A DNA stretch of 64,000 nucleotides, from positions 1 to 64,000 of IMG/VR virus record IMGVR_UViG_3300035696_000034; one strand, written 5' to 3'. Shown piece after piece: positions 2,558-55,762 of the stretch; the first letter of the stretch is position 1, and each line of letters opens with the position of its first letter. Both the position numbers and the translations under genes were made by a program. Origin of the DNA: a virus (lineage: Duplodnaviria; Caudoviricetes). A model generated the notes under the pieces. The model was not told the DNA's origin, did not search any database, and worked only from the letters and a program-made list of their open reading frames with translations.

Positions 2558-2638
2558 ATGATCTTTGTCGTTAACCCTAATAATAATCAGCCACAACCGC
2601 GAATCATCGATTCGTTGGGCGGGGAGATTATTCACTAG
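2558..2638 (+). CDS. Attenuator leader peptide A (MIFVVNPNNNQPQPRIIDSLGGEIIH), Asn/Pro/Gln-sensing
   Basis: Codons 6-14 AAC CCT AAT AAT AAT CAG CCA CAA CCG match the downstream Asn/Pro/Gln tRNAs; overlaps antiterminator strand. Confidence 0.8.
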   Translation: MIFVVNPNNNQPQPRIIDSLGGEIIH

Positions 2639-2702
2639 GTAACGACCCCAAGAACACCAAAAGCCCGGCGAATCTGAAAAGACTCGCTGGGCTTTTTGTT
2701 TT
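2594..2702 (+). promoter_or_regulatory. Transcription attenuator A (protector 1:2, antiterminator 2:3, terminator 3:4)
   Basis: 2594-2605 pairs with 2609-2617; 2609-2620 GATTCGTTGGGC pairs with 2663-2674 GCCCGGCGAATC (12 bp, 2 G-U). Confidence 0.8.
2659..2702 (+). terminator. Intrinsic terminator of attenuator A
   Basis: AAAAGCCCGGCGAATC-TGAAAA-GACTCGCTGGGCTTTT plus TGTTTT. Confidence 0.9.
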
Positions 2703-9380: not shown

Positions 9381-9648
9381 TCTCAGCGAGACCTACCGTC
9401 TGGTGCAGGCGATGCATGCTCTAGCGCAATATGCCATAGAGTATCCTAAGGAATTTCATTTATGGAATAATACGACCATAACAGTACTGGGAGTCAGGAA
9501 TCTCATCGAGCTCAAGATATGGCATATGGAACTCCTGAAGAAAGAGAAGATTTTTTCATCTTTCTATGAGCCAGATCTTGATGGTCAAGTTACGGCCATA
9601 GCTTGCTATGACGATGGGAGGATCTTTAAGGATCTGAGACTGGCATAA
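9340..9648 (+). CDS. Peptidyl-tRNA hydrolase 2-like protein
   Basis: MYVLARRDL...VQAMHA...FYEPDLDGQVTAIAC, Pth2-like pattern; start moved to ATG9340 (SD GGGAG). Confidence 0.7.
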   Translation: MPTQMRMYVLARRDLSETYRLVQAMHALAQYAIEYPKEFHLWNNTTITVLGVRNLIELKIWHMELLKKEKIFSSFYEPDLDGQVTAIACYDDGRIFKDLRLA

Positions 9649-9655
9649 GAGAATT

Positions 9656-9799
9656 GGATGCCTTTATACTTTAGATGCACGAAAGCAGATTGTTATCTGA
9701 CCGAACGGGGGTAAGGTGCCTGGTTCTGTCTCCGTTTCGCAAGAGGTAGCTCCTCGGAGCTGGTAGTAGGGCAGTGTGCATTTAAATATGAAGGCATCC
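9656..9799 (+). ncRNA. Candidate structured ncRNA (unknown class)
   Basis: Long closing helix GGATGCCTTTATA..TTTAGATGCAC / GTGCATTTAAA..TATGAAGGCATCC enclosing three hairpins; T run follows. Confidence 0.55.
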
Positions 9800-9845
9800 T
9801 TTTTAAAAGCAGAGAAAAAGAATTGAAACAGAACTGAGAAATATC

Positions 9846-10226
9846 ATGACTTCTTTAGAGTTACATCGCAAAGAACGAGAATTTTTAGAAGAATTATATT
9901 TATCCTTAAAAGTAGTGGATCGAGTTTTATCTAAATATCAAAAAACTCCACTAGAACCTGATTGTGTGAAAGAAGCTAGGAAACTAATGATAGATAAGAT
10001 AACTACTTTTACATCTAACATACCCGATAGATTAATCAGAGAAACAAAAGAAGAAGCTAAGGCTGAGTTAGACAAATGTCCTTGGAAAGATGATAAATAT
10101 GGAGAATGCTTAAGCTGTAAAATTCGCAGAGAATTAGGTTATGATGACTATCACAGTTGTTGGGGTAATCCAAGTAACACACGACATAATTTTTTATCAC
10201 ATCTTACGTGCACAGATGATCGATAA
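9846..10226 (+). CDS. Hypothetical protein
   Basis: 126-aa ORF. Confidence 0.55.
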   Translation: MTSLELHRKEREFLEELYLSLKVVDRVLSKYQKTPLEPDCVKEARKLMIDKITTFTSNIPDRLIRETKEEAKAELDKCPWKDDKYGECLSCKIRRELGYDDYHSCWGNPSNTRHNFLSHLTCTDDR

Positions 10227-10228
10227 GT

Positions 10229-10327
10229 GGTGGCAAGATCTATAGGCTTAGCGGCTTGGCTCCGTAAGTGAACCGACACGATCACGCACTTGCGCCTGTT
10301 GCCCTCGTGAGCTGGCAGGTTGCCACC
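10229..10327 (+). ncRNA. Candidate structured ncRNA (unknown class)
   Basis: GGTGGCAA/TTGCCACC closing stem; inner CGTAAGTG/CACTTGCG and CCTG/CAGG helices; GC-rich intergenic island. Confidence 0.5.
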
Positions 10328-11386: not shown

Positions 11387-11907
11387 AAAAAATAAGCAAT
11401 GCCGCAAGTACTGTAATATTCTCCACAAAAGGAGGGTGCCCTTGTTGGGACAAAGCCAACAGAACTTGTAGCGCCCCTAACGGTCCTGTTTACTGCGGAA
11501 ACGATCCTCATTCCGGACCTTCTGGTCACTGTCCATATCCAGATGTCCCTGAAGACAAAAAACAACATGGAGTTCCTTCTAGCTATAGCGTTCAAAACGG
11601 ATGTTGGAACTGTCAGCACAAATATGTATGGATTCAACAAGATGAAGATGTTGTATATTACTGTCATGTAGACAAGTCAAAACGACCTTTAAGTGACACC
11701 TATGACGAAAGTCATGTTACATATATGAAAAATAAAGGTCTAGTTTTTGGTAGAGGAAATAAAAAGAAAGATCAGCAGTATTATAAAGAAATGACAAGAC
11801 TAGACAGACTTTGGCGGAATTGGGCTAAAAAACATCTTGTACAAGAATCGGGCATATGTTCTAAGCATCTCCCTATAGCTCAGTCTGGTCAGAGTAGGGC
11901 TCTCTAA
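11383..11907 (+). CDS. Cys/His-rich hypothetical protein (3' end runs into the suppressor tRNA)
   Basis: ORF track; CWNCQH and YYCH motifs. Confidence 0.5.
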   Translation: MKKISNAASTVIFSTKGGCPCWDKANRTCSAPNGPVYCGNDPHSGPSGHCPYPDVPEDKKQHGVPSSYSVQNGCWNCQHKYVWIQQDEDVVYYCHVDKSKRPLSDTYDESHVTYMKNKGLVFGRGNKKKDQQYYKEMTRLDRLWRNWAKKHLVQESGICSKHLPIAQSGQSRAL

Positions 11908-11942
11908 AAGCTTTTACCTGGGTTCGAATCCCAGTAGGGAGA
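11869..11942 (+). tRNA. Amber suppressor tRNA (anticodon CTA)
   Basis: CTCCCTA/TAGGGAG acceptor, GGGCT-CTCTAAA-AGCTT, CTGGG-TTCGAAT-CCCAG; A73, no encoded CCA. Confidence 0.8.
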
Positions 11943-12020
11943 TTTGAAAACTATAAATTTTAAAATAGTCTTGGATTCTCTATTTCAAAAAAGTATATTA
12001 CTCTTGGAAGGAAAATATTT

Positions 12021-16474: not shown

Positions 16475-16717
16475 ATGGCCGGAACAGATAGCACTTTTAG
16501 TGCTTATGGATCTGAACAGAGTAACACAGCCCAGGGGACAGTCTCTATGAAAGACCAGGGAAACGCAGGTCTGGGTAATCCTCAGGGTGACAGAGTCGTA
16601 AATACCGAAGGCGAGAACAAGCTTATCGAGGACGGATTCTTTGGAACGTTTCAACAGTCTACAAGACTGACGAACTCGATTCAATACAACCCGGCGTCTC
16701 TTTATCCGAATAGCTAA
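16475..16717 (+). CDS. Small Gly/Asn/Thr-rich hypothetical (possibly virion) protein
   Basis: SD AAGGAG; low-complexity polar composition. Confidence 0.6.
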   Translation: MAGTDSTFSAYGSEQSNTAQGTVSMKDQGNAGLGNPQGDRVVNTEGENKLIEDGFFGTFQQSTRLTNSIQYNPASLYPNS

Positions 16718-16734: not shown

Positions 16735-16763
16735 TTGCATATTTCTGCTTTCGGGTGTATATT
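16735..16763 (+). promoter_or_regulatory. Sigma70-type promoter of attenuator/tRNA array B
   Basis: TTGCAT-17 bp-TATATT followed by TAGTA. Confidence 0.75.
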
Positions 16764-16797
16764 TAGTAGGATTCAAAAAACAGGAGAGCTACTTTCA

Positions 16798-16893
16798 ATG
16801 ACTTCTCGCACAATCATGACGATCATCAGTATGGCTATCATTAGTGATTTTGATAGCATGGATGATTTCATGTCTCAGCGGGAGTTTTTTTGA
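16798..16893 (+). CDS. Attenuator leader peptide B (MTSRTIMTIISMAIISDFDSMDDFMSQREFF), Met/Ile/Ser-AGY/Asp/Phe-sensing
   Basis: SD AGGAG at 16782-86; 18 of codons 6-25 are ATG/ATY/AGY/GAT/TTY, matching array B tRNAs. Confidence 0.85.
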   Translation: MTSRTIMTIISMAIISDFDSMDDFMSQREFF

Positions 16894-16962
16894 TAAAGTA
16901 GCATAACACAGAATCAAAAAGAGGCTCCCGCCGAGAGATCGACGGAAGCCTCTTTTATTTTA
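16801..16962 (+). promoter_or_regulatory. Transcription attenuator B
   Basis: 16878-16893 GCGGGAGTTTTTTTGA pairs with 16914-16931 TCAAAAAGAGGCTCCCGC, exclusive with the terminator; leader CDS itself folds back (GCTATCA/TGATAGC, ATCATC/GATGAT, CATGA/TCATG). Confidence 0.8.
16917..16962 (+). terminator. Intrinsic terminator of attenuator B, directly before the first tRNA
   Basis: AAAAGAGGCT...AGCCTCTTTT plus ATTTTA. Confidence 0.88.
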
Positions 16963-16963
16963 T

Positions 16964-17043
16964 GGCAATGTAGCTCAGTTTTGGTAGAGCGGTGCTCTCA
17001 TAAGGCGCGTCAGTCGGCGGTTCGATCCCGCCCATTGCCACCA
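16964..17043 (+). tRNA. tRNA with CAT anticodon (elongator Met or Ile2)
   Basis: GGCAATG/CATTGCC, loop CTCATAA, CCA. Confidence 0.88.
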
Positions 17044-17061: not shown

Positions 17062-17307
17062 ATGAATAGCAACGAAAATCACACACAATGCCTCTTAATA
17101 AGCGATGGAGGCATGCAACAGGTCGCCTGGATACCAACAGTACGGGCTAACCTGAAGAGGATTAGAATAGACGGTACAGTGTTTAACGTGAAAGAGCGAT
17201 ACAGCACGGTACCGAGTCGGGAAGTCCTAGATGATAGTTCAGATTACAGAAGGCACAGGAAAGCGACTGATCTGGAAAGCGGGTCTTGGAAAAGATTACC
17301 AGAATGA
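17062..17307 (+). CDS. Conserved phage hypothetical protein
   Basis: QC.L...AWIP...HRKATD pattern; start corrected to lie outside the tRNA. Confidence 0.65.
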   Translation: MNSNENHTQCLLISDGGMQQVAWIPTVRANLKRIRIDGTVFNVKERYSTVPSREVLDDSSDYRRHRKATDLESGSWKRLPE

Positions 17308-17314
17308 AAATTAA

Positions 17315-17387
17315 TGCGGGAGGCTAGGCCCTGTGGTCTGGGAACTCTCATAAGGTTCCAACCTACGTTCAACTCGTAGTCCCGCAA
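17315..17387 (+). tRNA. tRNA with CAT anticodon and atypical D-arm
   Basis: TGCGGGA/TCCCGCA, GAACT-CTCATAA-GGTTC, CTACG-TTCAACT-CGTAG. Confidence 0.7.
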
Positions 17388-17444
17388 ATTTTGTTATCAA
17401 TAGCAGCTTTAATTTCAACAGCTATTAATAAAATATCAACTAAT

Positions 17445-17522
17445 AGCAGGGTCGTCTAGTCCGGTTAAGATACTGGGCTCATAACCCGGAGATCGTTCGT
17501 TCAAATCGAACCCCTGCAACCA
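17445..17522 (+). tRNA. trnfM: Initiator tRNA-fMet(CAT)
   Basis: 1:72 mismatch (A:A), three G-C pairs GGG/CCC in anticodon stem, CCA. Confidence 0.88.
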
Positions 17523-17608: not shown

Positions 17609-17684
17609 GGGCGTATCGTCCAACGGTTTAAGATGCGAATCTGATAAGTTCGAGATCGTAGTTCAATTCTACGTACGCCCACCA
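17609..17684 (+). tRNA. trnI: tRNA-Ile(GAT)
   Basis: GGGCGTA/TACGCCC, CGAAT-CTGATAA-GTTCG, CCA. Confidence 0.93.
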
Positions 17685-17690
17685 TTTTAA

Positions 17691-17763
17691 GGCTGTTTAG
17701 CCTACGCGGTCACGGCGCTCGCCTGAAGAGCGAGATATTCCAGTTCGACTCTGGAAGCAGCCA
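17691..17763 (+). tRNA. trnF: tRNA-Phe(GAA)
   Basis: GGCTGTT/AGCAGCC, CTCGC-CTGAAGA-GCGAG. Confidence 0.88.
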
Positions 17764-17780: not shown

Positions 17781-17867
17781 GGAGAGTTGGGTGAATGGTA
17801 AAACCACGAGTTTGCTAAACTCGCGTCCGTCAAGGACATGCAGGTTCGAGCCCTGCACTCTCCGCCA
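17781..17867 (+). tRNA. trnS: tRNA-Ser(GCT)
   Basis: GGAGAGT/ACTCTCC, CGAGT-TTGCTAA-ACTCG, long variable arm, GCCA. Confidence 0.94.
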
Positions 17868-17874
17868 GTTTTAC

Positions 17875-17951
17875 GGGTCTGTAGTTTAGTTGGTTAAAGC
17901 ACCTGATTGTCGATCAGGATATCGGGAGTTCGAATCTCCTCAGACCCGCCA
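17875..17951 (+). tRNA. trnD: tRNA-Asp(GTC)
   Basis: GGGTCTG/CAGACCC, CCTGA-TTGTCGA-TCAGG, GCCA. Confidence 0.94.
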
Positions 17952-28423: not shown

Positions 28424-28690
28424 ATGTCCTCCCAGTTATCTGACTTTGAGAAAAAGACATACGTAGAACGAAGAAAAATAGAGACAGACCGTTTTGATGA
28501 GGGTATGAGACGACAGCACGATCCCAGGAATGATGGGGATTATGATCTAGATTGGGTCATAAGAAATGCTGCCGATTTCAACAGACAGTGGAAAAATTGT
28601 ATCTGTAAAAATTGCAAGAACGTTAAAGAGTGCGGTTTCAAATTAGCTACGGATTGTGCACATTTTGTTGAAGAAAAAAATAATAGTTGA
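28424..28690 (+). CDS. Hypothetical protein with C-terminal Cys cluster
   Basis: SD GAGG; CICKNCKNVKEC. Confidence 0.6.
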   Translation: MSSQLSDFEKKTYVERRKIETDRFDEGMRRQHDPRNDGDYDLDWVIRNAADFNRQWKNCICKNCKNVKECGFKLATDCAHFVEEKNNS

Positions 28691-28715
28691 CATTTCTTTG
28701 TTTTGCGTGTATATT
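28687..28715 (+). promoter_or_regulatory. Sigma70-type promoter of attenuator/tRNA array C
   Basis: TTGACA-17 bp-TATATT followed by TAGTA; TTGACATTTC shared with promoter A. Confidence 0.82.
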
Positions 28716-28743
28716 TAGTACAAAGGAAAAATGGTAAAGTCAT

Positions 28744-28869
28744 ATGGATCGTAAAATCTCTATAACCCTAACATCGTCCGCGCTCTGTTTGTGCGCAACT
28801 GCACAGACATGGGCCGGATTACGCTCACATCTGTATCTTACAGGGCGTAAAAGGCGGGGTTTAGAGTAA
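28744..28869 (+). CDS. Attenuator leader peptide C (MDRKISITLTSSALCLCATAQTWAGLRSHLYLTGRKRRGLE)
   Basis: Uses all six Leu codons, all four TCN, both Cys, three Ala, three Thr codon types, His, Tyr, Trp; 24 of codons 6-33 cognate to array C. Confidence 0.8.
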   Translation: MDRKISITLTSSALCLCATAQTWAGLRSHLYLTGRKRRGLE

Positions 28870-28930
28870 AGATACACTCTAATTGGCAAACAAAAACCCC
28901 GCCGAAGAAGTTCAGCGGGGTTTTTGTTTG
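28853..28930 (+). promoter_or_regulatory. Transcription attenuator C (antiterminator/terminator)
   Basis: GGCGGGGTTT (28853-62) is the exact complement of AAACCCCGCC (28894-903); nested TTAGAGT/ACTCTAA hairpin. Confidence 0.82.
28887..28930 (+). terminator. Intrinsic terminator of attenuator C
   Basis: CAAACAAAAACCCCGC...GCGGGGTTTTTGTTTG. Confidence 0.9.
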
Positions 28931-28985: not shown

Positions 28986-29441
28986 ATGAAGACTAAAGAA
29001 AGACTAATAGCAAGAGAACTACGTCAAAAAAAAGGAATGTCTTTACGAAATATTTGCAAAAAATTAAATATAGCTAAAAGTACGGCTCGTGCTTGGACTA
29101 AAGATATAAAGATAACTGAAAAACAAAAAGAGAACCTTAGAAAGAACGTAACAAATAGCCAGTTTACTACTAAAATTCAAGACAAAGATTTGTTTGTTTG
29201 TCCCTGTTATGTAAACAGAAAATGTATAAAAAAAAGAATTTTAAAAAAGGCCCTCATTCCATATATATGCGCGCTTTGTAGTAGACCTCCTATATGGGAA
29301 GGACAAAAACTAGTTCTTATACTAGATCATATAAACGGAAACAATCTTGATTACAGGTTAAGCAATATAAGATTTTTGTGTCCTAATTGTAATAGCCAAC
29401 AAGAAACGTTTTGTAGAAATAAAAAGGTTAAAAATGTTTGA
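28986..29441 (+). CDS. HTH plus HNH homing endonuclease
   Basis: LILDHINGNNLDYRLSNIRFLCPNCNSQ. Confidence 0.88.
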   Translation: MKTKERLIARELRQKKGMSLRNICKKLNIAKSTARAWTKDIKITEKQKENLRKNVTNSQFTTKIQDKDLFVCPCYVNRKCIKKRILKKALIPYICALCSRPPIWEGQKLVLILDHINGNNLDYRLSNIRFLCPNCNSQQETFCRNKKVKNV

Positions 29442-32058: not shown

Positions 32059-32390
32059 ATGCGAAAGGCAAGCCTACCTTAACGGTTACAGGTGAAACCG
32101 AAGATGGAAAATTAGTTGTATCAGGTGTCTTTGAACTCATGTCCTCTGTACTCGGAGTCCCCTTAGAGTTTCTCCTCGAGATGTTAAAAGAGAGAAACAT
32201 TCTAGTAAGTTGGACTCACTTCTATAACTCCTCTGTAGAACATCTCTGGAGTTATAAGACAACAAGGGAGAGAGTGAGTACAGCTGTGTTTGAGGTTTAC
32301 GGCCCGGAGTACAGAGATGAGGTGATGAAGAGGTTGGATTATTATCATAGGAGCGTATCAGACAGGTCTCCAAAACCTGATTTACTGTAA
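32059..32390 (+). CDS. Hypothetical protein requiring a -1 frameshift near its start
   Basis: SD AAAGGA plus ATG32059 in one frame; long start-less open frame from 32055 in the -1 frame; junction ATG CGA AAG. Confidence 0.5.
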
Positions 32391-32430
32391 TTGGGTGAAA
32401 ATGGGGGTTCGACTCCCTCCGCTCCTGCCA
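32349..32430 (+). tRNA. trnW: tRNA-Trp(CCA) lacking a D-arm, with long variable arm
   Basis: AGGAGCG/CGCTCCT, CAGGT-CTCCAAA-ACCTG, T-loop TTCGACT, GCCA; only 7 nt between acceptor and anticodon stems. Confidence 0.75.
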
Positions 32431-39185: not shown

Positions 39186-40365
39186 TTATATTTGAGCTGA
39201 AGAGTTTATTATCATAGATTTGTAAAAATTATGAAACTCATCCGTTCTTCCAAATGTAGCTTAAAATTCGCTACAACCTCCAAACTCTCTAAGCTTCGTA
39301 AGGTGCTTTCTGAATGTGGCCGAGTCTGTAACATCTTTATTGATTACTTTTGGAAAAGTGGCACTCCCTCTAAATCTGAACTCTTAAAAGAAATAGTAGA
39401 CATCCCACAAGGCACTTGGCTGACCGCTCGGCTTCGTAAAATAGCCGCCCGGGAAGCTATAGACATGATTAATGCTGTGAGAGAGAGGTGGAAGGATAAA
39501 CCTTGGAAGATCTCTATGCCCATACATAAGGGCAAGAGAGCTTACGTCTCCTGTACCATAGCGGATCTTCAGGAAAAAGGTGGTTCTAAGGAATTTGATG
39601 CCTGGCTTCATTTGTCCTCTGTCGGGAAAGAGACAATCCTGGACCTTCCTATTAAATTTCATAAACATTATAATAAATTAGCTCTTCAAGGAAAACGCTT
39701 GAATTCCTACATCCTTACAAATAAATATGTCCAGTTTTCATTTGAAATAGATGTAGGTGAGAAGAAAAATGGCGCTAACGCTATAGGCATAGATACTGGG
39801 ATCAAAGCCCTTGCCTCTTTAAATAACGGCGCTCAATTCGGTTTAGATATTGAAACCCTTATCGAGCGTATCAAACGCTGTCAGCATGGCTCTAATGGTC
39901 AGAAACAAGCCCGGAAAGCCTTTAAACAGAGGATAGATGAAGCCGTCAAAGAGGTAGTTAAACATTTTGAGCATATAGATTTGGTCGTGGTAGAAGCATT
40001 AAAAAACATGAATTACAAGAGTAAACTCAAACGTCGCTTGAGTAAAAATATGCGGCGTTCTATCGGCACTTGGGCGTATAGGTACTGGTTAAAAAGGCTG
40101 GAGCAAGCCTGTGAGACTAACCGTGTTAGTTTTCGCACCGTGGCTCCTTTTTATACCAGCCAAACATGTCCGAGCTGTGGTCATGTCGATAGGGGGAATA
40201 GAGTAGGACAAATGTTCCGGTGCCTAGTATGTGGTCACACAGGTAACGCAGATATTATTGCAGCCAGGAACATATTGACTCGATTTCTTACGGGACTCTA
40301 CGGTGCCCGTTACAAACCATACGAAACTATATTTAATATTTCATAGTTTCAGAGGAACGGTGCTC
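39186..40365 (+). mobile_element. TnpB-only (IS1341-like) IS200/IS605 element; ends approximate
   Basis: tnpB without tnpA; TTGAT at 39182-86 resembles a TAM. Confidence 0.6.
39231..40346 (+). CDS. tnpB: RNA-guided endonuclease TnpB
   Basis: IGIDTG (D), VVVEAL (E), TSQTCPSCG...CLVCG..GNADIIAARNI (D); triad intact. Confidence 0.92.
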   Translation: MKLIRSSKCSLKFATTSKLSKLRKVLSECGRVCNIFIDYFWKSGTPSKSELLKEIVDIPQGTWLTARLRKIAAREAIDMINAVRERWKDKPWKISMPIHKGKRAYVSCTIADLQEKGGSKEFDAWLHLSSVGKETILDLPIKFHKHYNKLALQGKRLNSYILTNKYVQFSFEIDVGEKKNGANAIGIDTGIKALASLNNGAQFGLDIETLIERIKRCQHGSNGQKQARKAFKQRIDEAVKEVVKHFEHIDLVVVEALKNMNYKSKLKRRLSKNMRRSIGTWAYRYWLKRLEQACETNRVSFRTVAPFYTSQTCPSCGHVDRGNRVGQMFRCLVCGHTGNADIIAARNILTRFLTGLYGARYKPYETIFNIS

Positions 40366-43449: not shown

Positions 43450-44619
43450 ATGAAAGAAGCCATCTACGCAGCCTCCCTTGATCCCATAACCTATGGACAT
43501 GTAAATATCGTAGAACGGGCTCTGAATGTCTTTGACCATATCCTTGTGGCGATAGGAGTCAATGAGACCAAGGAGTCCTTATTCTCGCTCGAGGAACGGG
43601 AAATACTGGCCAAAAAAGAACTAGCCCGTTTCGGTAATCGAGTGAGAGTAAAATCCTTCAAAGGTATGCTCTCGGATTTCGCCTACGGAAATGACATCAA
43701 GACAGTAATAAGAGGCGCTAGAAGTACTCCCGATTTCGATTATGAAAAGCTGCTCAGCGATATTAATCGCTACAGTGGTGTAGATACGATCATATACACC
43801 ACCATCCCCAGGCTCGCTCATGTAAGCTCAAGCGCAGCCAAAGCGATTACGCTCAATGCTGGCAAGAACATCCTTGATTATGTTTCCATGACTGTTAAAC
43901 ATCGTCTGGAAGAGAAGCTACTATATCAATATCGAATCGGCGTTACCGGTGTGATTGGATCTGGAAAGTCTTATATCACAGAACTCTTTCGAAATTACGT
44001 AATAAACAAAAGACCACTATGGTGTCAGCCACATGTGATAGATATGGATAAGATCGGTCATTATATCCTTAAAACGAGTGCCGAACCTATCCACAAAAAA
44101 GTTCGAAAAGAAGTGTGCAAGCTTCTCAAAATAAAAGAGTCCAATAAAGGCGTGGATCTTGGAGAGCTTAGAAAGAAAATATTTGACGACTCATATAGTC
44201 CAAACAGGGATAGTTTTAATAATTTGATGCGTGAGCCTATGATGTATGAATTAAGAAAATTCTTGTTGGAGAATAAAGGGAATATAGGCTGGAACAGCGT
44301 TGTTCTTATCGTGGGAGCTCTTTTAGTCGAAATGAAGGGTCTTAGCGAATTCAATAATAATTTACTTATGGTCGATTGCCCAAAAGATTTAATCGTCAGC
44401 CGTTTGAAAAAATCGCGGGGATACAGTGACAAGGATATCGAAATACGCTTAGCAGCTCAAAACTCCTTGAGCATTAAAGGAAAACGTCTTGATGAAAAAA
44501 TGCACGATGATGGATACGGTCACGGATGGCTAGTAGAAAATGACAAGACATTAATGCAAGATGAGCTACTTTCAACGTTTGATAAGATATTAAAAGAAAT
44601 GGGGATTTGGAATGGATAG
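43450..44619 (+). CDS. coaD: Bifunctional phosphopantetheine adenylyltransferase / dephospho-CoA kinase (CoaD-CoaE fusion)
   Basis: N: SLDPITYGH, IRGARS..DFDYE, VSSSAAK; C: IGVTGVIGSGKS, IDMDKIGH, RLAAQ. Confidence 0.9.
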   Translation: MKEAIYAASLDPITYGHVNIVERALNVFDHILVAIGVNETKESLFSLEEREILAKKELARFGNRVRVKSFKGMLSDFAYGNDIKTVIRGARSTPDFDYEKLLSDINRYSGVDTIIYTTIPRLAHVSSSAAKAITLNAGKNILDYVSMTVKHRLEEKLLYQYRIGVTGVIGSGKSYITELFRNYVINKRPLWCQPHVIDMDKIGHYILKTSAEPIHKKVRKEVCKLLKIKESNKGVDLGELRKKIFDDSYSPNRDSFNNLMREPMMYELRKFLLENKGNIGWNSVVLIVGALLVEMKGLSEFNNNLLMVDCPKDLIVSRLKKSRGYSDKDIEIRLAAQNSLSIKGKRLDEKMHDDGYGHGWLVENDKTLMQDELLSTFDKILKEMGIWNG

Positions 44620-45268
44620 AGGTGTTGAATTCATTCAAGTTATAAAAGATCTCCTTAACTGTGTGAACCATGGGGGCATAATACATGTAGCCCAGATGGT
44701 TTATGACATCACGAATTCATACGGGGAAAGTTTCAGACACTATCATACCCTTGAACATATAGCAGACTGCTTCGAAGAATACGAAGAGGTGAAAAAGCAT
44801 TTCAGGAAGCCTATTTTTGTCAAGTTTGCTTTATTGTACCACGACATAGTCTATATACCTGGATATGACGGTAACGAAAGGGCGAGTGCTGCAAGGGCAG
44901 CGTTAGATGCCTACAAGTTAGGTTTAGGAGAGGAGCAACGTAAATACATAATGGACTGTATTGAGGCAACTGCGCGGCCTGCTGGTAGTATACTCATGTG
45001 CTCAAAAGACCATGAGTACGTTCATGACATTGATTATAGTATTTTAGGTCAGGATAAAGAGACATTTATACAGTACGAGAACGCCATACATAACGAATTT
45101 TCCATATCATATGACGACGATAAATATCGCCACGGAAGACTCATGTTTTTAAATAAACTGTTAAACTTAAATAGCATATATTTTACTGATCATTTCTGTA
45201 AGAAATATGAGAAAAAGGCAAAAGAAAATATAAGGTACGCCATAAATGTACTTAATAGAGGAAAGTAA
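44612..45268 (+). CDS. Predicted HD-superfamily phosphohydrolase
   Basis: RHYHTLEHI...ALLYHDIVY...NERASA...DIDYSILG. Confidence 0.85.
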   Translation: MDRGVEFIQVIKDLLNCVNHGGIIHVAQMVYDITNSYGESFRHYHTLEHIADCFEEYEEVKKHFRKPIFVKFALLYHDIVYIPGYDGNERASAARAALDAYKLGLGEEQRKYIMDCIEATARPAGSILMCSKDHEYVHDIDYSILGQDKETFIQYENAIHNEFSISYDDDKYRHGRLMFLNKLLNLNSIYFTDHFCKKYEKKAKENIRYAINVLNRGK

Positions 45269-45269
45269 A

Positions 45270-45872
45270 ATGGATGCTTGGCTGACTGCAGATACTCACT
45301 TCGGATATACTGTTAAGGATACAGACGGAGGTATTGAAAGGCCTAAGGATTTCTCTGAAAAGCTTTTCAAAGGGCTTCAGAGATCTCTTACACCTTACAG
45401 CACGCTCATACATCTTGGAGATTTATGCTACAGGGATGACGAAATCTGGAATAAAAGATTAGCAGAACTTCCAGGTAAAAAGTGGCTTATTATCGGGAAC
45501 CACGATAAAAAGTCGATCACATGGTATCTTGATAATGGGTGGGATTTTGCAGGTCATACTATATCCCTGATAGCTTTTGGTAAAAATATATTGTTTTCGC
45601 ATATACCAATGATGACGGATAATCTTTGTGCCGGTCCAAAAGGCTATTCAGAGCATAGATTTGATATAAATATTCACGGGCATTTTCACGATTTTCCAGC
45701 AGAGAAAGTGAAAGAGAAAGAGCCCGAGATATATAAAATACTGAATAAAAAACATTTTCTTATCTCTATGGAAAAGCTCAATTATCAGCCTATAAAACTG
45801 AAAAGGATAGTCGAACTTTTCAACACTGGAAAGTACCATGGACTCGAAAATGCCCTTACTCCTAACCCGTGA
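45270..45872 (+). CDS. Calcineurin-like phosphoesterase
   Basis: TADTHFG, HLGDL, GNHD, FSHIP, NIHGHFH. Confidence 0.88.
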   Translation: MDAWLTADTHFGYTVKDTDGGIERPKDFSEKLFKGLQRSLTPYSTLIHLGDLCYRDDEIWNKRLAELPGKKWLIIGNHDKKSITWYLDNGWDFAGHTISLIAFGKNILFSHIPMMTDNLCAGPKGYSEHRFDINIHGHFHDFPAEKVKEKEPEIYKILNKKHFLISMEKLNYQPIKLKRIVELFNTGKYHGLENALTPNP

Positions 45873-46893
45873 TGACTTCCGAGAGAAAGTCTTCGAGAGA
45901 GACTCTCATAAGTGCGTATTGTGCGGGGTGGAGGCTGCAGATGCCCACCATATCTTAGATCGCTCTCTCTTCGATGATAGTGGTTACTATGTCGAAAATG
46001 GAGTTTCACTCTGTACTTTTCATCACCTTGAAGCAGAGAAAACCCACATAACTTGTGATGAGCTCAGGGAAGCTGCTAAAATTAAAACCAGGTGCATGCC
46101 TGAACACTTCTATCTTGATGAGAATTATGATCACTGGGGAAACATTGTGTTGCCCAACAAGATGAGACTTAAAGGTGAGCTGTTTGGTAATGAGAATGTT
46201 CAGAAGATACTTAAAGAAGCTGATGTTTTGGATTTATTCCAAAAATACATTAAGCAGTCCCGAACATTCCACCTTCCTTGGAGTGAGAACCTTCAGAATG
46301 ATGATCGTAAACATGAGAATGTAGAATTCCTTTTGAATAAGCCTGTTGTAACTACCTTGAAGATGGACGGTGAGGGATCCAGTTTGTGTTCTGACCACAT
46401 GCATGCTCGGTCTATTAACTCTGGACACCACCCATCTAGAAGCTGGTTAAAAGCCCTTCATGGTCAAATAGCACAGGACATACCAAAAGGATTTCGTGTG
46501 GTAGGAGAGAATGTTTATGCTAAGCACTCAATTTATTATCAACATCTCAAGACCTATTTTTATGTATTTTCTATATGGAATGAAAACAATATAGCTTTGA
46601 GTTGGGATGAAACTCATGAGTATGCCGAACTGCTAGGATTAACTATGGTACCTGAAATTTGTTTCGGGACCTATAAGACCATAGAGGAAATGAGAAGTGA
46701 TATAGAGACAAACCTTGAAAAATATTCGAAAATCTGCAAAGACGAAATAGAGGGTTATGTCGTTAGGTTAGCCGATAGGATACCCTATAAGGATTGGAGG
46801 ATATCTTCGGGAAAGTTCGTAAGAAAAAATCATGTACAAACTTCAGAAAATTGGATTACACAACCAGTAATTCCTAATAAGCTTGAGGAATAG
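45838..46893 (+). CDS. HNH domain fused to RNA ligase
   Basis: N: RDSHKCVLCG..DAHHI...LCTFHH; C: KMDG adenylation motif, GENVYAKHSI, EGYVVR, KFVRKNHV. Confidence 0.85.
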   Translation: MDSKMPLLLTRDDFREKVFERDSHKCVLCGVEAADAHHILDRSLFDDSGYYVENGVSLCTFHHLEAEKTHITCDELREAAKIKTRCMPEHFYLDENYDHWGNIVLPNKMRLKGELFGNENVQKILKEADVLDLFQKYIKQSRTFHLPWSENLQNDDRKHENVEFLLNKPVVTTLKMDGEGSSLCSDHMHARSINSGHHPSRSWLKALHGQIAQDIPKGFRVVGENVYAKHSIYYQHLKTYFYVFSIWNENNIALSWDETHEYAELLGLTMVPEICFGTYKTIEEMRSDIETNLEKYSKICKDEIEGYVVRLADRIPYKDWRISSGKFVRKNHVQTSENWITQPVIPNKLEE

Positions 46894-53995: not shown

Positions 53996-55762
53996 TTACC
54001 CAAAATAGGAAGACAAAACATTCCTGACAGAGGAATTTCTTATCTTAAAAAAATCTCCGCTTTTTCGGTCTTCTGCACTGGACTTTATCAAAGCCTCAAA
54101 AGCATTTTTATCTTTTAAGATAGACTCTATTAATTTTTTGGCTTCTTCTTTTCTTTTGCTTATATCCGGATCCCCCATACGGCCTTCCATCATCAGCTTT
54201 TTCAATCTGGCTATAACCGCTCCCAAAGCTTCTTTATCTATGCCGTACTGGTCCCTTATCTCGTCTCCAGACAGCGGAGGGACATATTCATATTTATCTC
54301 TTTTGATTAAAAGTCCGTTCTTCTTGTCTTCTTCCACTAGCTTCTTTATTTTAGCTTCCAGATTTTCTACTTTTTTTATTCCTGCTTGATCTTTAGCGTC
54401 GGCTTTCAAAATAGCTATCGCATCATCCAAGTCATCGTGGAGTTTCTCTATGTATATCCTCATCGTCCTTTGTTGAGTGCTGGGTTTTTGACCCTCGAAA
54501 TCCTTAAATCCCATATGGGAATGTACGATATTTTTTACGGAGTTGATAGTCTTGCTGTCAAAAGTAAGCTCTCTCATTATTTTTTCCGTTAATGCGGCAC
54601 TAGCTTTTTCATGACCTATAAATTGTACACGCTGTCTACCCTCTTTGTCCACCTTTTCCGTCTTGGTAGCGATTTTACCTACATCATGGAATAAAGCCGC
54701 AAGACGAGCCTTAAGCGTTGGCGGAGTCTTACTCATGACTTCCATGGTATGATCCCAGACAGATTCGCCTTTATGGAAGACTTTGTCGTGGTAGACGGTA
54801 AGAAGCTTATCAAACTCAGGCGAAAGGTATTTCAGGAACCCAAGCTCCTTCATAAGATTGAGGCCTTGAATAACCTTATTAGAATCGGGGAAGACCAGTA
54901 TCTGCTCGAGCTCATCTCTGATACGCTCTTTAGAGAGCCTGCTGGAGATGTTCTTGTGACCCTCAGGGCTGTTTACGAACTGTTTAATAGTTTCTTTGGT
55001 CTGAGGATCTATCTTGAAATCTGGTAGCTTCCCCTCGAACCGAATTAATCGCATTATTCTTAATGGATCTTCCTCATATATCTTCTGGATGCCTTCAGGA
55101 TGCTCGGGTGGCTTGAGCTTTTTATTTTGAATATCCTGTATGCCTCCAACAAAATCTTTGACCTCACCAGTAACGATATTCTGATAGAGTGCGTTTATCG
55201 TAAGATCTCTTCTCCTACTATCGTCCTCCAGAGAAGTATAATCGACACGAGAAGGGGCTCGTTTCATTTCATCATAAGGTCCTTCTTTTCGTGGAGGAGT
55301 GATCTCTATGACATAGCCAGTCACATCGACTCCGTCTGTTATATAAGCTTGTCTGTTGCTCTCGGCATGATCTTGATGGGGATTAAGAAGAACAACTCCC
55401 CATATACCAAAAGCTTCTTTAAGAGGATGAGGATTATTTGGGGTAGTAATACCTAGAGCTTGTGTGAGTTTTTTGGCGAAGACTTCTGCAGCTTTCATCC
55501 CTTGCTCGGGATCATCGATAACCAGATCGAGATCTTTCGGGTTTCTTCCCAAAAGACGGTCCCTAACAAACCCACCCGTACTATATACTTTGTCTTTGTA
55601 GCTTGGAAATTCGGAGACTATGGTATCCTTAACGAGCTTTTCAACGGCATTGGTTTGTCTGGTTAATTCCTCTTTGGACTTTATTTCGTCCGGGACTTTA
55701 AACGCAGCTCCAGCTTCTCTCTCGTTCAGGAATGAGGAGACTACTCTTAGTTTTGAAACCAT
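53996..55762 (-). CDS. cca: CCA-adding tRNA nucleotidyltransferase with HD domain
   Basis: GGFVRDRLLGRNPKDLDL, DSRRRDLTINAL, EDPLRIMRLIRF, ALFHDVGK. Confidence 0.95.
   Translation of the reverse strand: MVSKLRVVSSFLNEREAGAAFKVPDEIKSKEELTRQTNAVEKLVKDTIVSEFPSYKDKVYSTGGFVRDRLLGRNPKDLDLVIDDPEQGMKAAEVFAKKLTQALGITTPNNPHPLKEAFGIWGVVLLNPHQDHAESNRQAYITDGVDVTGYVIEITPPRKEGPYDEMKRAPSRVDYTSLEDDSRRRDLTINALYQNIVTGEVKDFVGGIQDIQNKKLKPPEHPEGIQKIYEEDPLRIMRLIRFEGKLPDFKIDPQTKETIKQFVNSPEGHKNISSRLSKERIRDELEQILVFPDSNKVIQGLNLMKELGFLKYLSPEFDKLLTVYHDKVFHKGESVWDHTMEVMSKTPPTLKARLAALFHDVGKIATKTEKVDKEGRQRVQFIGHEKASAALTEKIMRELTFDSKTINSVKNIVHSHMGFKDFEGQKPSTQQRTMRIYIEKLHDDLDDAIAILKADAKDQAGIKKVENLEAKIKKLVEEDKKNGLLIKRDKYEYVPPLSGDEIRDQYGIDKEALGAVIARLKKLMMEGRMGDPDISKRKEEAKKLIESILKDKNAFEALIKSSAEDRKSGDFFKIRNSSVRNVLSSYFG

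Follow-up and report, generated by a model that had tools for sequence, protein, structure and literature searches.

A putative multivalent leader-peptide attenuator ahead of a phage tRNA array

The purpose of phage tRNA genes has been debated for fifty years; suggested roles include compensating for codon usage, replacing host tRNAs that have been degraded, and evading defences that cleave tRNAs. The question taken up here is what a strong intrinsic terminator and a short open reading frame (ORF) are doing directly ahead of an array of such genes in a phage genome. The answer favored here is that positions 16735-16963 form a multivalent leader-peptide transcription attenuator that gates the tRNA operon. 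This reading is considered likely, with a probability of approximately 0.7, and the function is inferred from the sequence.

The window, that is, the whole stretch of DNA analyzed, comprises 64,000 nucleotides and is the first 64 kb of a virus record of 72,486 bp (IMGVR_UViG_3300035696_000034; Duplodnaviria; Caudoviricetes). The CheckV completeness of the record is 29%, and the record is therefore regarded as a fragment of a phage of approximately 250 kb. The DNA has a G+C content of 38.8%, and its + strand carries nearly all genes up to approximately 52 kb. ARAGORN identified 31 tRNA genes, among which 21 were confirmed by Rfam at the gathering score. The locus under study, cassette B, sits between an 80-codon ORF that ends at 16717 and a tRNA-Met(CAT) gene at 16964, with a promoter-like site separating the upstream gene from the leader. 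Its leader and terminator sequence is identical between contigs of two peat metagenome runs, and no leader variants were found between these two DNA runs, so that no population-level covariation is usable. The features of cassette B and of the array that follows it are given below.

16735-16768, + strand: putative sigma-70-type promoter, read from the sequence with its function inferred; -35 TTGCAT (16735-16740), 17-nt spacer, -10 TATATT (16758-16763)
16782-16786, + strand: Shine-Dalgarno sequence AGGAG, read from the sequence, 11 nt ahead of the ATG
16798-16896, + strand: leader ORF of 31 sense codons with in-frame tandem stops TGA TAA (16891-16896); control block of codons 6-25 at 16813-16872
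16788-16809, + strand: segment 1, the 5' strand of the outer protector helix, from minimum free energy (MFE) pairs; spans the start codon and codons 1-4
16815-16872, + strand: two nested inner hairpins formed from control codons, in which Ile ATC pairs with Asp GAT and CATG palindromes pair
16870-16902, + strand: segment 2, the protector 3' strand and predicted antiterminator 5' strand; holds GCGGGAG (16878-16884), a U run, and the stop codon
16913-16939, + strand: segment 3, the predicted antiterminator 3' strand, overlapping the terminator 5' arm; 2:3 helix of approximately -28 kcal/mol
16920-16961, + strand: putative intrinsic terminator; 13-bp GC-rich stem at 16920-16953 (-19.6 kcal/mol), then a U tract to 16961
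16964-17043, + strand: tRNA-Met(CAT), the first array gene, 2 nt past the U tract; ARAGORN, Rfam 54.6 bits
17315-18035, + strand: rest of array B, with tRNA(CAT) at 17315, tRNA(CAT) at 17445 (initiator-like), Ile(GAT) at 17609, Phe(GAA) at 17691, Ser(GCT) at 17781, and Asp(GTC) at 17875 and 17961; ARAGORN/Rfam

The -10 element of the promoter-like site runs on into an 11-nt motif, TATATTTAGTA, which is common to three cassettes designated A, B, and C. Exactly three copies of the motif are present in the 72.5-kb record (at 2451, 16758, and 28710). Each copy has a -35 hexamer 17 nt before it and a leader ORF with a strong terminator after it, and each leader is matched to a different array. Use of the promoter in cassette B is inferred from sequence alone.

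An earlier sequence-only reading of this locus had listed eight tRNAs after the U tract, which held in part: seven of the eight reach the Rfam tRNA threshold, and the one at 17315-17387 is supported by ARAGORN only. Its statement that no gene lies between the terminator and the first tRNA was confirmed; an 80-codon ORF of no known function (17064-17307) follows that tRNA and precedes the second. It had also named, as a finding that would refute it, constitutive expression of the tRNA at 16964 from another promoter. With the U tract reaching 16961 and the tRNA beginning at 16964, no room is left for a promoter between them, and the first tRNA is thus reachable only by read-through. The sole -35-like hexamer within the leader lacks an acceptable -10, and a start from it would still precede the terminator. 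The leader ORF, its Shine-Dalgarno sequence, and its codon counts were likewise found as that reading had described them.

The leader through its TGA (16891-16893) spans 16798-16893 and includes five Met codons (codons 1, 7, 12, 21, and 25), five Ile codons (ATC and ATT only), three AGY Ser codons, four GAT codons, and four TTY codons. Of the 20 codons in the control block (codons 6-25), 18 are read by the downstream tRNAs; only ACG (codon 8) and GCT (codon 13) are not. The distance of 11 nt from the Shine-Dalgarno sequence to the AUG is rather long, an observation that counts against the attenuator reading. The strength of the codon match was assessed over ATG-ORFs of 12-60 codons with a same-strand tRNA at most 12 kb downstream, in which codons cognate by standard wobble rules were scored relative to codon usage in the long ORFs of the window. 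This definition was met by 173 ORFs, and leader B ranked first among them, with 20 of its 30 post-start codons cognate against a background of 0.19 (p = 1.5e-8, or approximately 3e-6 after correction for 173 tests).

The match is also specific, as only 1/30 and 5/30 codons of leader B are cognate to the arrays of the other two cassettes in a 3 x 3 leader-by-array matrix. It further holds at the level of synonymous codons, beyond the level of amino acids. Ser is encoded three times in the control block and always by AGY, compared with an AGY background of 0.33 of the Ser codons in the window; tRNA-Ser(GCU) belongs to array B, and the three TCN-reading Ser tRNAs belong to array C. Similarly, all five Ile codons are ATC or ATT, though ATA makes up 0.48 of Ile codons. 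ATA is absent from leader B, although one tRNA(CAT) could in principle be of the Ile2 type, a point against the attenuator reading. The ORF and the codon match with its specificity are computed results, and translation of the leader is inferred.

The RNA of cassette B is predicted to be highly structured. The fold of 16775-16965 has an energy of -67.1 kcal/mol (z = -6.6 against dinucleotide shuffles), and its MFE structure consists of a long leader hairpin, made up of an outer helix and two nested inner hairpins, together with the terminator. Four nested helices burying the strand GCGGGAG had been proposed previously and were recovered as MFE pairs: 16834-16840/16851-16857, 16821-16827/16861-16867, 16815-16819/16868-16872, and 16800-16809/16878-16886, with the outermost helix extending to 16788/16902. 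The buried strand was found to have an alternative partner, as 16878-16884 can pair with 16925-16931 inside the helix 16870-16894/16913-16939. Once the 5' part is removed, 16870-16894 switches to 16913-16939 and consumes the terminator 5' arm. The protector, antiterminator, and terminator are therefore predicted by the model to be mutually exclusive, and they match the 1:2, 2:3, and 3:4 helices known from classical attenuators. These helices and their energies are computed, while termination is inferred.

The leader hairpin (-42.7 kcal/mol) is no by-product of codon composition, and depends on both codon order and synonymous choice. It is more stable than 200/200 shuffles of the leader's own codons (z = -4.05), 198/200 shuffles of codons 6-25 alone (z = -2.7), and 200/200 synonymous variants encoding an identical peptide (z = -4.3). 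Ile codons occupy the 5' half of the hairpin, and Asp codons occupy its 3' half. The earlier proposal that one sequence carries both a codon code and an RNA fold is borne out by these comparisons. Since no homologue of cassette B was found, the helices are without covariation support.

In the proposed mechanism, host RNA polymerase would start at the promoter, and a ribosome would load at AGGAG and translate the 31-codon leader. With fast decoding of the Met, Ile (ATC/ATT), Ser (AGY), Asp (GAT), and Phe codons, the ribosome would arrive at the TGA within segment 2, and in a leader left untranslated, segment 1 would hold segment 2. In either case, segments 3 and 4 would pair and transcription would stop at 16961, 2 nt before the first tRNA. 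When a charged tRNA is scarce, the ribosome would linger on a control codon and leave segment 2 free to pair with segment 3 (16870-16894/16913-16939), so that no terminator forms and the polymerase enters the Met, Ile, Phe, Ser(GCU), and Asp tRNA genes. The newly made tRNAs would then relieve the stall as a negative feedback. Both the stall-dependent read-through and its biological trigger are inferred. The features of an attenuator that are visible in a sequence are present, namely, a promoter-like site, a ribosome-binding site, control codons, the 1:2, 2:3, and 3:4 helices, and a stop codon in segment 2, and cassette B satisfies this list with one reservation, the direct masking of segment 1 by most control codons.

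This reservation was examined with a masking model, in which a 28-nt ribosome footprint was placed at each A-site codon and pair probabilities were then calculated. Without a ribosome, the full-length cassette forms the terminator with a probability of 0.98. When pairs spanning the ribosome are forbidden, A-site positions at codons 2-23 give the antiterminator with a probability of about 0.85, and positions at codons 24-32 give the terminator with a probability of 0.94-0.98; of the 18 cognate codons in the control block, 16 fall within this stalling range of codons 2-23. The TGA lies inside segment 2, and a ribosome that has reached it covers this segment, in keeping with the classical scheme. 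When ribosome-spanning pairs are allowed, antitermination is obtained only for stalls at codons 2-9, which include three cognate codons, because segment 1 can re-pair with segment 2 behind the ribosome. The choice between the two models depends on sterics and kinetics, and neither is favored. In a ribosome-free partial transcript that stops short of the terminator 3' arm, the outer protector is slightly less stable than the 2:3 helix. The 1:2 helix must therefore form first for the untranslated default to hold, and this default may leak. Cassette B had been called the cleanest case because no gene separates its terminator from the first tRNA, and this standing was upheld on a further ground, as in cassette B alone, and not in A or C, the antiterminator wins over the terminator at equilibrium when segment 2 is free.

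Two general points weigh against the attenuator reading. A leader peptide of this kind senses charged tRNA, and amino-acid starvation would therefore also induce the tRNA genes, to no benefit. In addition, the host is not known, and the tight coupling of transcription and translation is therefore only assumed.

The arrangement is not confined to cassette B. The two sister cassettes in the record share its promoter type and are located as follows.

2428-2700, + strand: cassette A; 26-codon leader at 2558-2638, terminator at 2660-2700
28687-28930, + strand: cassette C; 41-codon leader at 28744-28869, terminator at 28892-28930

Leader A contains nine consecutive Asn, Pro, and Gln codons, and array A consists of Pro, Asn, Asn, Pro, Gln, Pro, and Gln tRNAs. 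Leader C contains the full sets of six Leu and four TCN Ser codons and both Cys codons, in addition to Ala, Thr, His, and Tyr codons, and heads an array of Cys, Leu, Tyr, His, Thr, Ala, and Ser tRNAs. The diagonal of the leader-by-array matrix for A, B, and C reads 8/25, 20/30, and 20/40 cognate codons, against 1 to 7 in the off-diagonal cells. In the masking model at equilibrium, the terminator of A and C wins at every ribosome position. Equilibrium masking was rejected as a test of these two cassettes because attenuators work kinetically, and co-transcriptional snapshots were used instead. In these snapshots, the antiterminator of A forms only with a stalled ribosome, and that of C forms unless a ribosome occupies the stop codon.

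Homologues of the locus itself were not recovered, and the collections searched contained no close relative of the phage. A blastn search against 50,697 phage records returned short tRNA matches only, and searches of IMG/VR with the neighboring 142-aa protein and with a 27-nt tRNA pattern gave no match. More distant phages were reached by way of the ATPase gene that lies just downstream of the array. A profile of this ATPase, run against IMG/VR, JGI metagenomes, and GTDB genomes, found relatives of at most 54% identity; the closest ATPase relatives are P0002-P0009, with 60-69% identity. Among the relatives from the profile search, tRNAs near the ATPase gene were absent in all except L043, which has a tRNA array in the same position that runs off the contig end and hides any leader. 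The only cultured relatives found were Bacteroides phages, at 33% identity over one protein. tRNA arrays were located in the records of four relatives.

A terminator-first scan was applied, which required a U tract following a hairpin of at least -14 kcal/mol in stability, located at most 1.3 kb upstream of a same-strand tRNA. It yielded 19 terminators in five phages, 17 of which have a short ATG-ORF ending at most 95 nt upstream. The same architecture was found in three other giant phages (G001, G002, and G004) with twelve terminator-linked leaders, and one more leader was found in G005. For instance, G001 has a Gln/Pro/Arg leader before an array of Pro, Gln, Pro, Gln, Arg, and Arg tRNAs and a leader of Phe, Ser-AGY, and Cys codons before Phe, Ser(GCU), Cys, and Cys tRNAs; G004 has a Glu/Trp/Arg/Asp leader before Glu, Arg, Met, Trp, Asp, and Arg tRNAs; and the Leu/Ser/Cys leader of G005 precedes Leu, Leu, Ser, Cys, Ser, Ser, Leu, and Leu tRNAs. 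Upstream of tRNA-Leu(TAA) in G001, no clear leader was seen, and a tRNA was probably missed by ARAGORN there.

For 15 leaders in four phages, the mean z of the codon match was 3.77 to the leader's own array and 0.25 to foreign arrays. The own array ranked first for 10 of the 15 leaders, and the observed sum was reached in 0 of 20,000 permutations. Leader B, whose own array ranked first, has a z of 6.7, the joint highest of the 15, which makes cassette B the statistically strongest single example among those examined. Leaders of similar arrays are alike in composition and not in residue order, which argues for selection on the control codons as opposed to the peptide. The recurrence of the design is thus a computed result. 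The tRNA region of phage T5, which holds many small ORFs, had been considered as a model for codon-matched leaders and was dropped; it serves as a negative control, as the same scripts found no terminator-linked codon-matched ORF in this 23-tRNA region, and hence do not find the pattern everywhere.

Several other explanations of the locus can be weighed against the attenuator. The leader may be a translated sensor of decoding speed whose output is something other than antitermination. A stall could alter the processing or stability of the precursor through RNase E, RNase P, or stall-triggered cleavage, or could block Rho, while the hairpin with its U tract would serve either as a constitutive partial stop or in 5' processing. 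Codon matching supports sensing and is silent on the output, cassettes A and C keep the terminator at equilibrium whatever the ribosome position, and the tRNA 5' end must be cut from a leader-bearing precursor anyway. Against this, the 2:3 helix overlaps the terminator 5' arm in B and has equivalents in the co-transcriptional snapshots of A and C; such an overlap is a hallmark of antitermination and has no role in processing models, and this explanation is judged unlikely. An RNA-only switch, in which the choice between terminator and antiterminator is made by a protein, tRNA, or small molecule bound to the leader RNA and the ORF is merely incidental, would agree with the highly structured RNA (z = -6.6) and with the fact that the hairpin follows in part from codon complementarity (ATC/GAT). 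However, no Rfam family, T-box included, came near its threshold, and such a switch leaves unexplained the ribosome-binding site, the start codon, and the tandem stops, as well as a codon composition that tracks array content in 15 cassettes of four phages. It too is improbable.

Still less can be said for the remaining two. The hairpin might be an ordinary terminator or insulator after the upstream gene, accompanied by a chance ORF, with the tRNAs expressed by constitutive leak-through. Short ORFs are indeed common, as the 173 upstream of tRNAs in the window show, and phage genomes are dense in terminators. Nevertheless, the corrected p of approximately 3e-6, the repetition of the arrangement at all three copies of the promoter motif and at 17 of 19 pre-array terminators in five phages, and the promoter-like site between the upstream gene and the leader make this very unlikely. 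The ORF might instead encode a micropeptide with a function of its own, such as a small peptide of hydrophobic or acidic character acting on the host, whose composition is unrelated to the tRNAs; the good ribosome-binding site and the hydrophobic N-terminal half would suit such a role. Equivalent leaders, however, share composition with their arrays and not peptide sequence or order, and the synonymous choices serve the RNA fold, so that this possibility is also very remote. The attenuator interpretation of the sequence-only reading is, on balance, supported by the sequence, with its function remaining an inference.

A bolder version of the attenuator reading can be put forward as a possibility. 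Each cassette may be an independent, codon-resolved sensor of demand, through which the phage would follow the decoding of just those codon families that its own tRNAs read and would switch on only the block of tRNAs in short supply. The trigger could be the cleavage of host tRNAs by anticodon-nuclease defences or their decay after host shut-off. The arrays would then possibly be an inducible, self-limiting counter-measure and not a constitutive supplement to codon usage. Ile ATC and Asp GAT are reverse complements, and in this bolder reading the membership of array B therefore lets the control codons double as an RNA switch.

If the attenuator reading is true, giant phages at least adjust their tRNA supply to demand, and the cassettes offer a direct handle for testing what creates tRNA demand. 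It would also extend a textbook mechanism of amino-acid operons to genes whose product is the sensed molecule, and the cassettes, as compact and codon-specific natural sensors of decoding speed, could be put to use as reporters.

Leader-peptide attenuation is itself well known. No account of leader-peptide attenuation of tRNA genes, in phage or elsewhere, was found in the full-text literature searched, and tRNA genes as its target are thus new and unpublished within that literature. A cryptic long tRNA array in Anabaena is induced under translational stress (PMC8421152) and resembles the present case in having extra tRNA genes that are normally silent and come on when translation is impaired. 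It is an element of a bacterial chromosome, whereas cassette B belongs to a phage, and the text of that paper does not contain 'attenuat', 'leader', or 'terminator', so that no leader-ORF mechanism is described there.

T-box riboswitches also couple tRNA status to terminator read-through by means of an overlapping antiterminator. They bind uncharged tRNA through a specifier codon and a conserved T-box sequence without translation, whereas cassette B has an ORF and would sense several codons, and the T-box covariance model gave no match to cassette B even at E-values up to 10. In the ermC and cat leaders, as proposed for cassette B, a ribosome paused in a short leader ORF remodels the downstream RNA. 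Their trigger is a drug together with the nascent peptide and their output is mostly translational, whereas the trigger proposed here is codon decoding and the output transcriptional.

The amino-acid attenuators of enterobacteria include trpL, hisL, leuL, and pheL, along with the ilvGMEDA leader with its Ile, Leu, and Val codons and the thr leader with Thr and Ile codons. Cassette B is like them in having a promoter-proximal short ORF with control codons for several amino acids, predicted 1:2, 2:3, and 3:4 helices with a shared terminator 5' arm, a finishing ribosome that would cover segment 2, and read-through expected when charged tRNA is limiting. It is unlike them in its phage location and in its targets, which are tRNAs and not biosynthetic enzymes, so that the product would feed back directly on the sensor. 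It also differs in carrying five codon families per leader at codon-box resolution (Ser AGY versus TCN) and in having most control codons inside the protector hairpin, not only in segment 1. The Rfam amino-acid leader families (His, Thr, Leu, Trp, and Phe) gave no match at the gathering score; in E-value mode, the sole leader match was His_leader with 17 bits (gathering score 49), on the minus strand and over the terminator only. The pheST attenuator of Escherichia coli, with its pheM leader, controls a component of translation by the supply of one charged tRNA, and cassette B is similarly read as a leader-peptide attenuator acting on a component of the translation apparatus. The pheST target is an aminoacyl-tRNA synthetase, the sensing is of a single amino acid, and the operon is chromosomal, unlike the several codon families and the phage tRNA genes proposed for cassette B.

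The leader of cassette A, the leader-ORF and terminator unit heading the Pro/Asn/Gln tRNA array (array A), ends in a TAG stop codon (window 2636-2676 region), and the same phage encodes a tRNA with the anticodon CTA (window 11868-11943), which is of the amber suppressor type, is labeled Pyl by ARAGORN, and lies downstream of array A. The next stop for a ribosome reading through this TAG is the TGA at 2674-2676, within the 5' arm of the cassette A terminator. In contrast to leader A, the leader of cassette B ends in a tandem TGA TAA.

Inspection by eye shows initiator-like features in the third tRNA(CAT) (window 17445-17522) of array B, the array headed by cassette B: an A1xA72 mismatch, and an anticodon stem with three G:C pairs at its base. 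The second tRNA(CAT) (window 17315-17387) was detected by ARAGORN only and falls below the Rfam tRNA threshold. Over the initiator-like tRNA (window 17399-17519), the summed contig depth rises from approximately 5 to 490-600 in both peat runs, and numerous partial contigs from other organisms map to this interval; the jump reflects conserved tRNA sequence and is not a feature of the phage. Another ARAGORN call, a tRNA-Ser with the anticodon ACT at window 32349-32430, has an Rfam score of just 35 bits, and its identity is doubtful.

Protein genes were also found in or beside the tRNA arrays:

window 39231-40346: ORF with a Cas12f1-like TNB domain (TnpB-type), within tRNA array C
window 43450-46893 and 53996-55762 (minus strand): tRNA and nucleotide maintenance module, adjoining the arrays

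The maintenance module is composed of a cytidylyltransferase/CoaE-like fusion, an RNA ligase, and a CCA-adding-enzyme-like protein that possesses a PolyA_pol head together with RNA-binding and HD domains.

Cassette C contains a 7-codon mini-ORF (window 28731-28754) in a different frame from the 41-codon leader, whose start it overlaps; the mini-ORF has the better ribosome-binding site of the two. Between the cassette C terminator and the first tRNA is an HNH-endonuclease-like gene (window 28986-29441), which also matches HTH weakly.

The tRNA region of phage T5 (AY543070 28000-41000), analyzed with the same scan as the window, is rich in annotated promoters and small ORFs, and no terminator-linked codon-matched leader was found in it; a 13-codon ORF with four AGR codons, located 417 nt upstream of tRNA-Arg(TCT), is without a terminator. 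The 469-kb phage G004 (IMGVR_UViG_3300028840_006907) was found to have two Asn/Pro/Gln leaders in tandem (positions 9588-10273 of its sequence L104), each with its own terminator and both preceding an array that reads Gln, Pro, Pro, Pro, Gln and is closed by a CTA-anticodon tRNA, as is array A of the window. The terminators of these tandem leaders resemble that of cassette A, and the A-type cassette may therefore be homologous across these phages.
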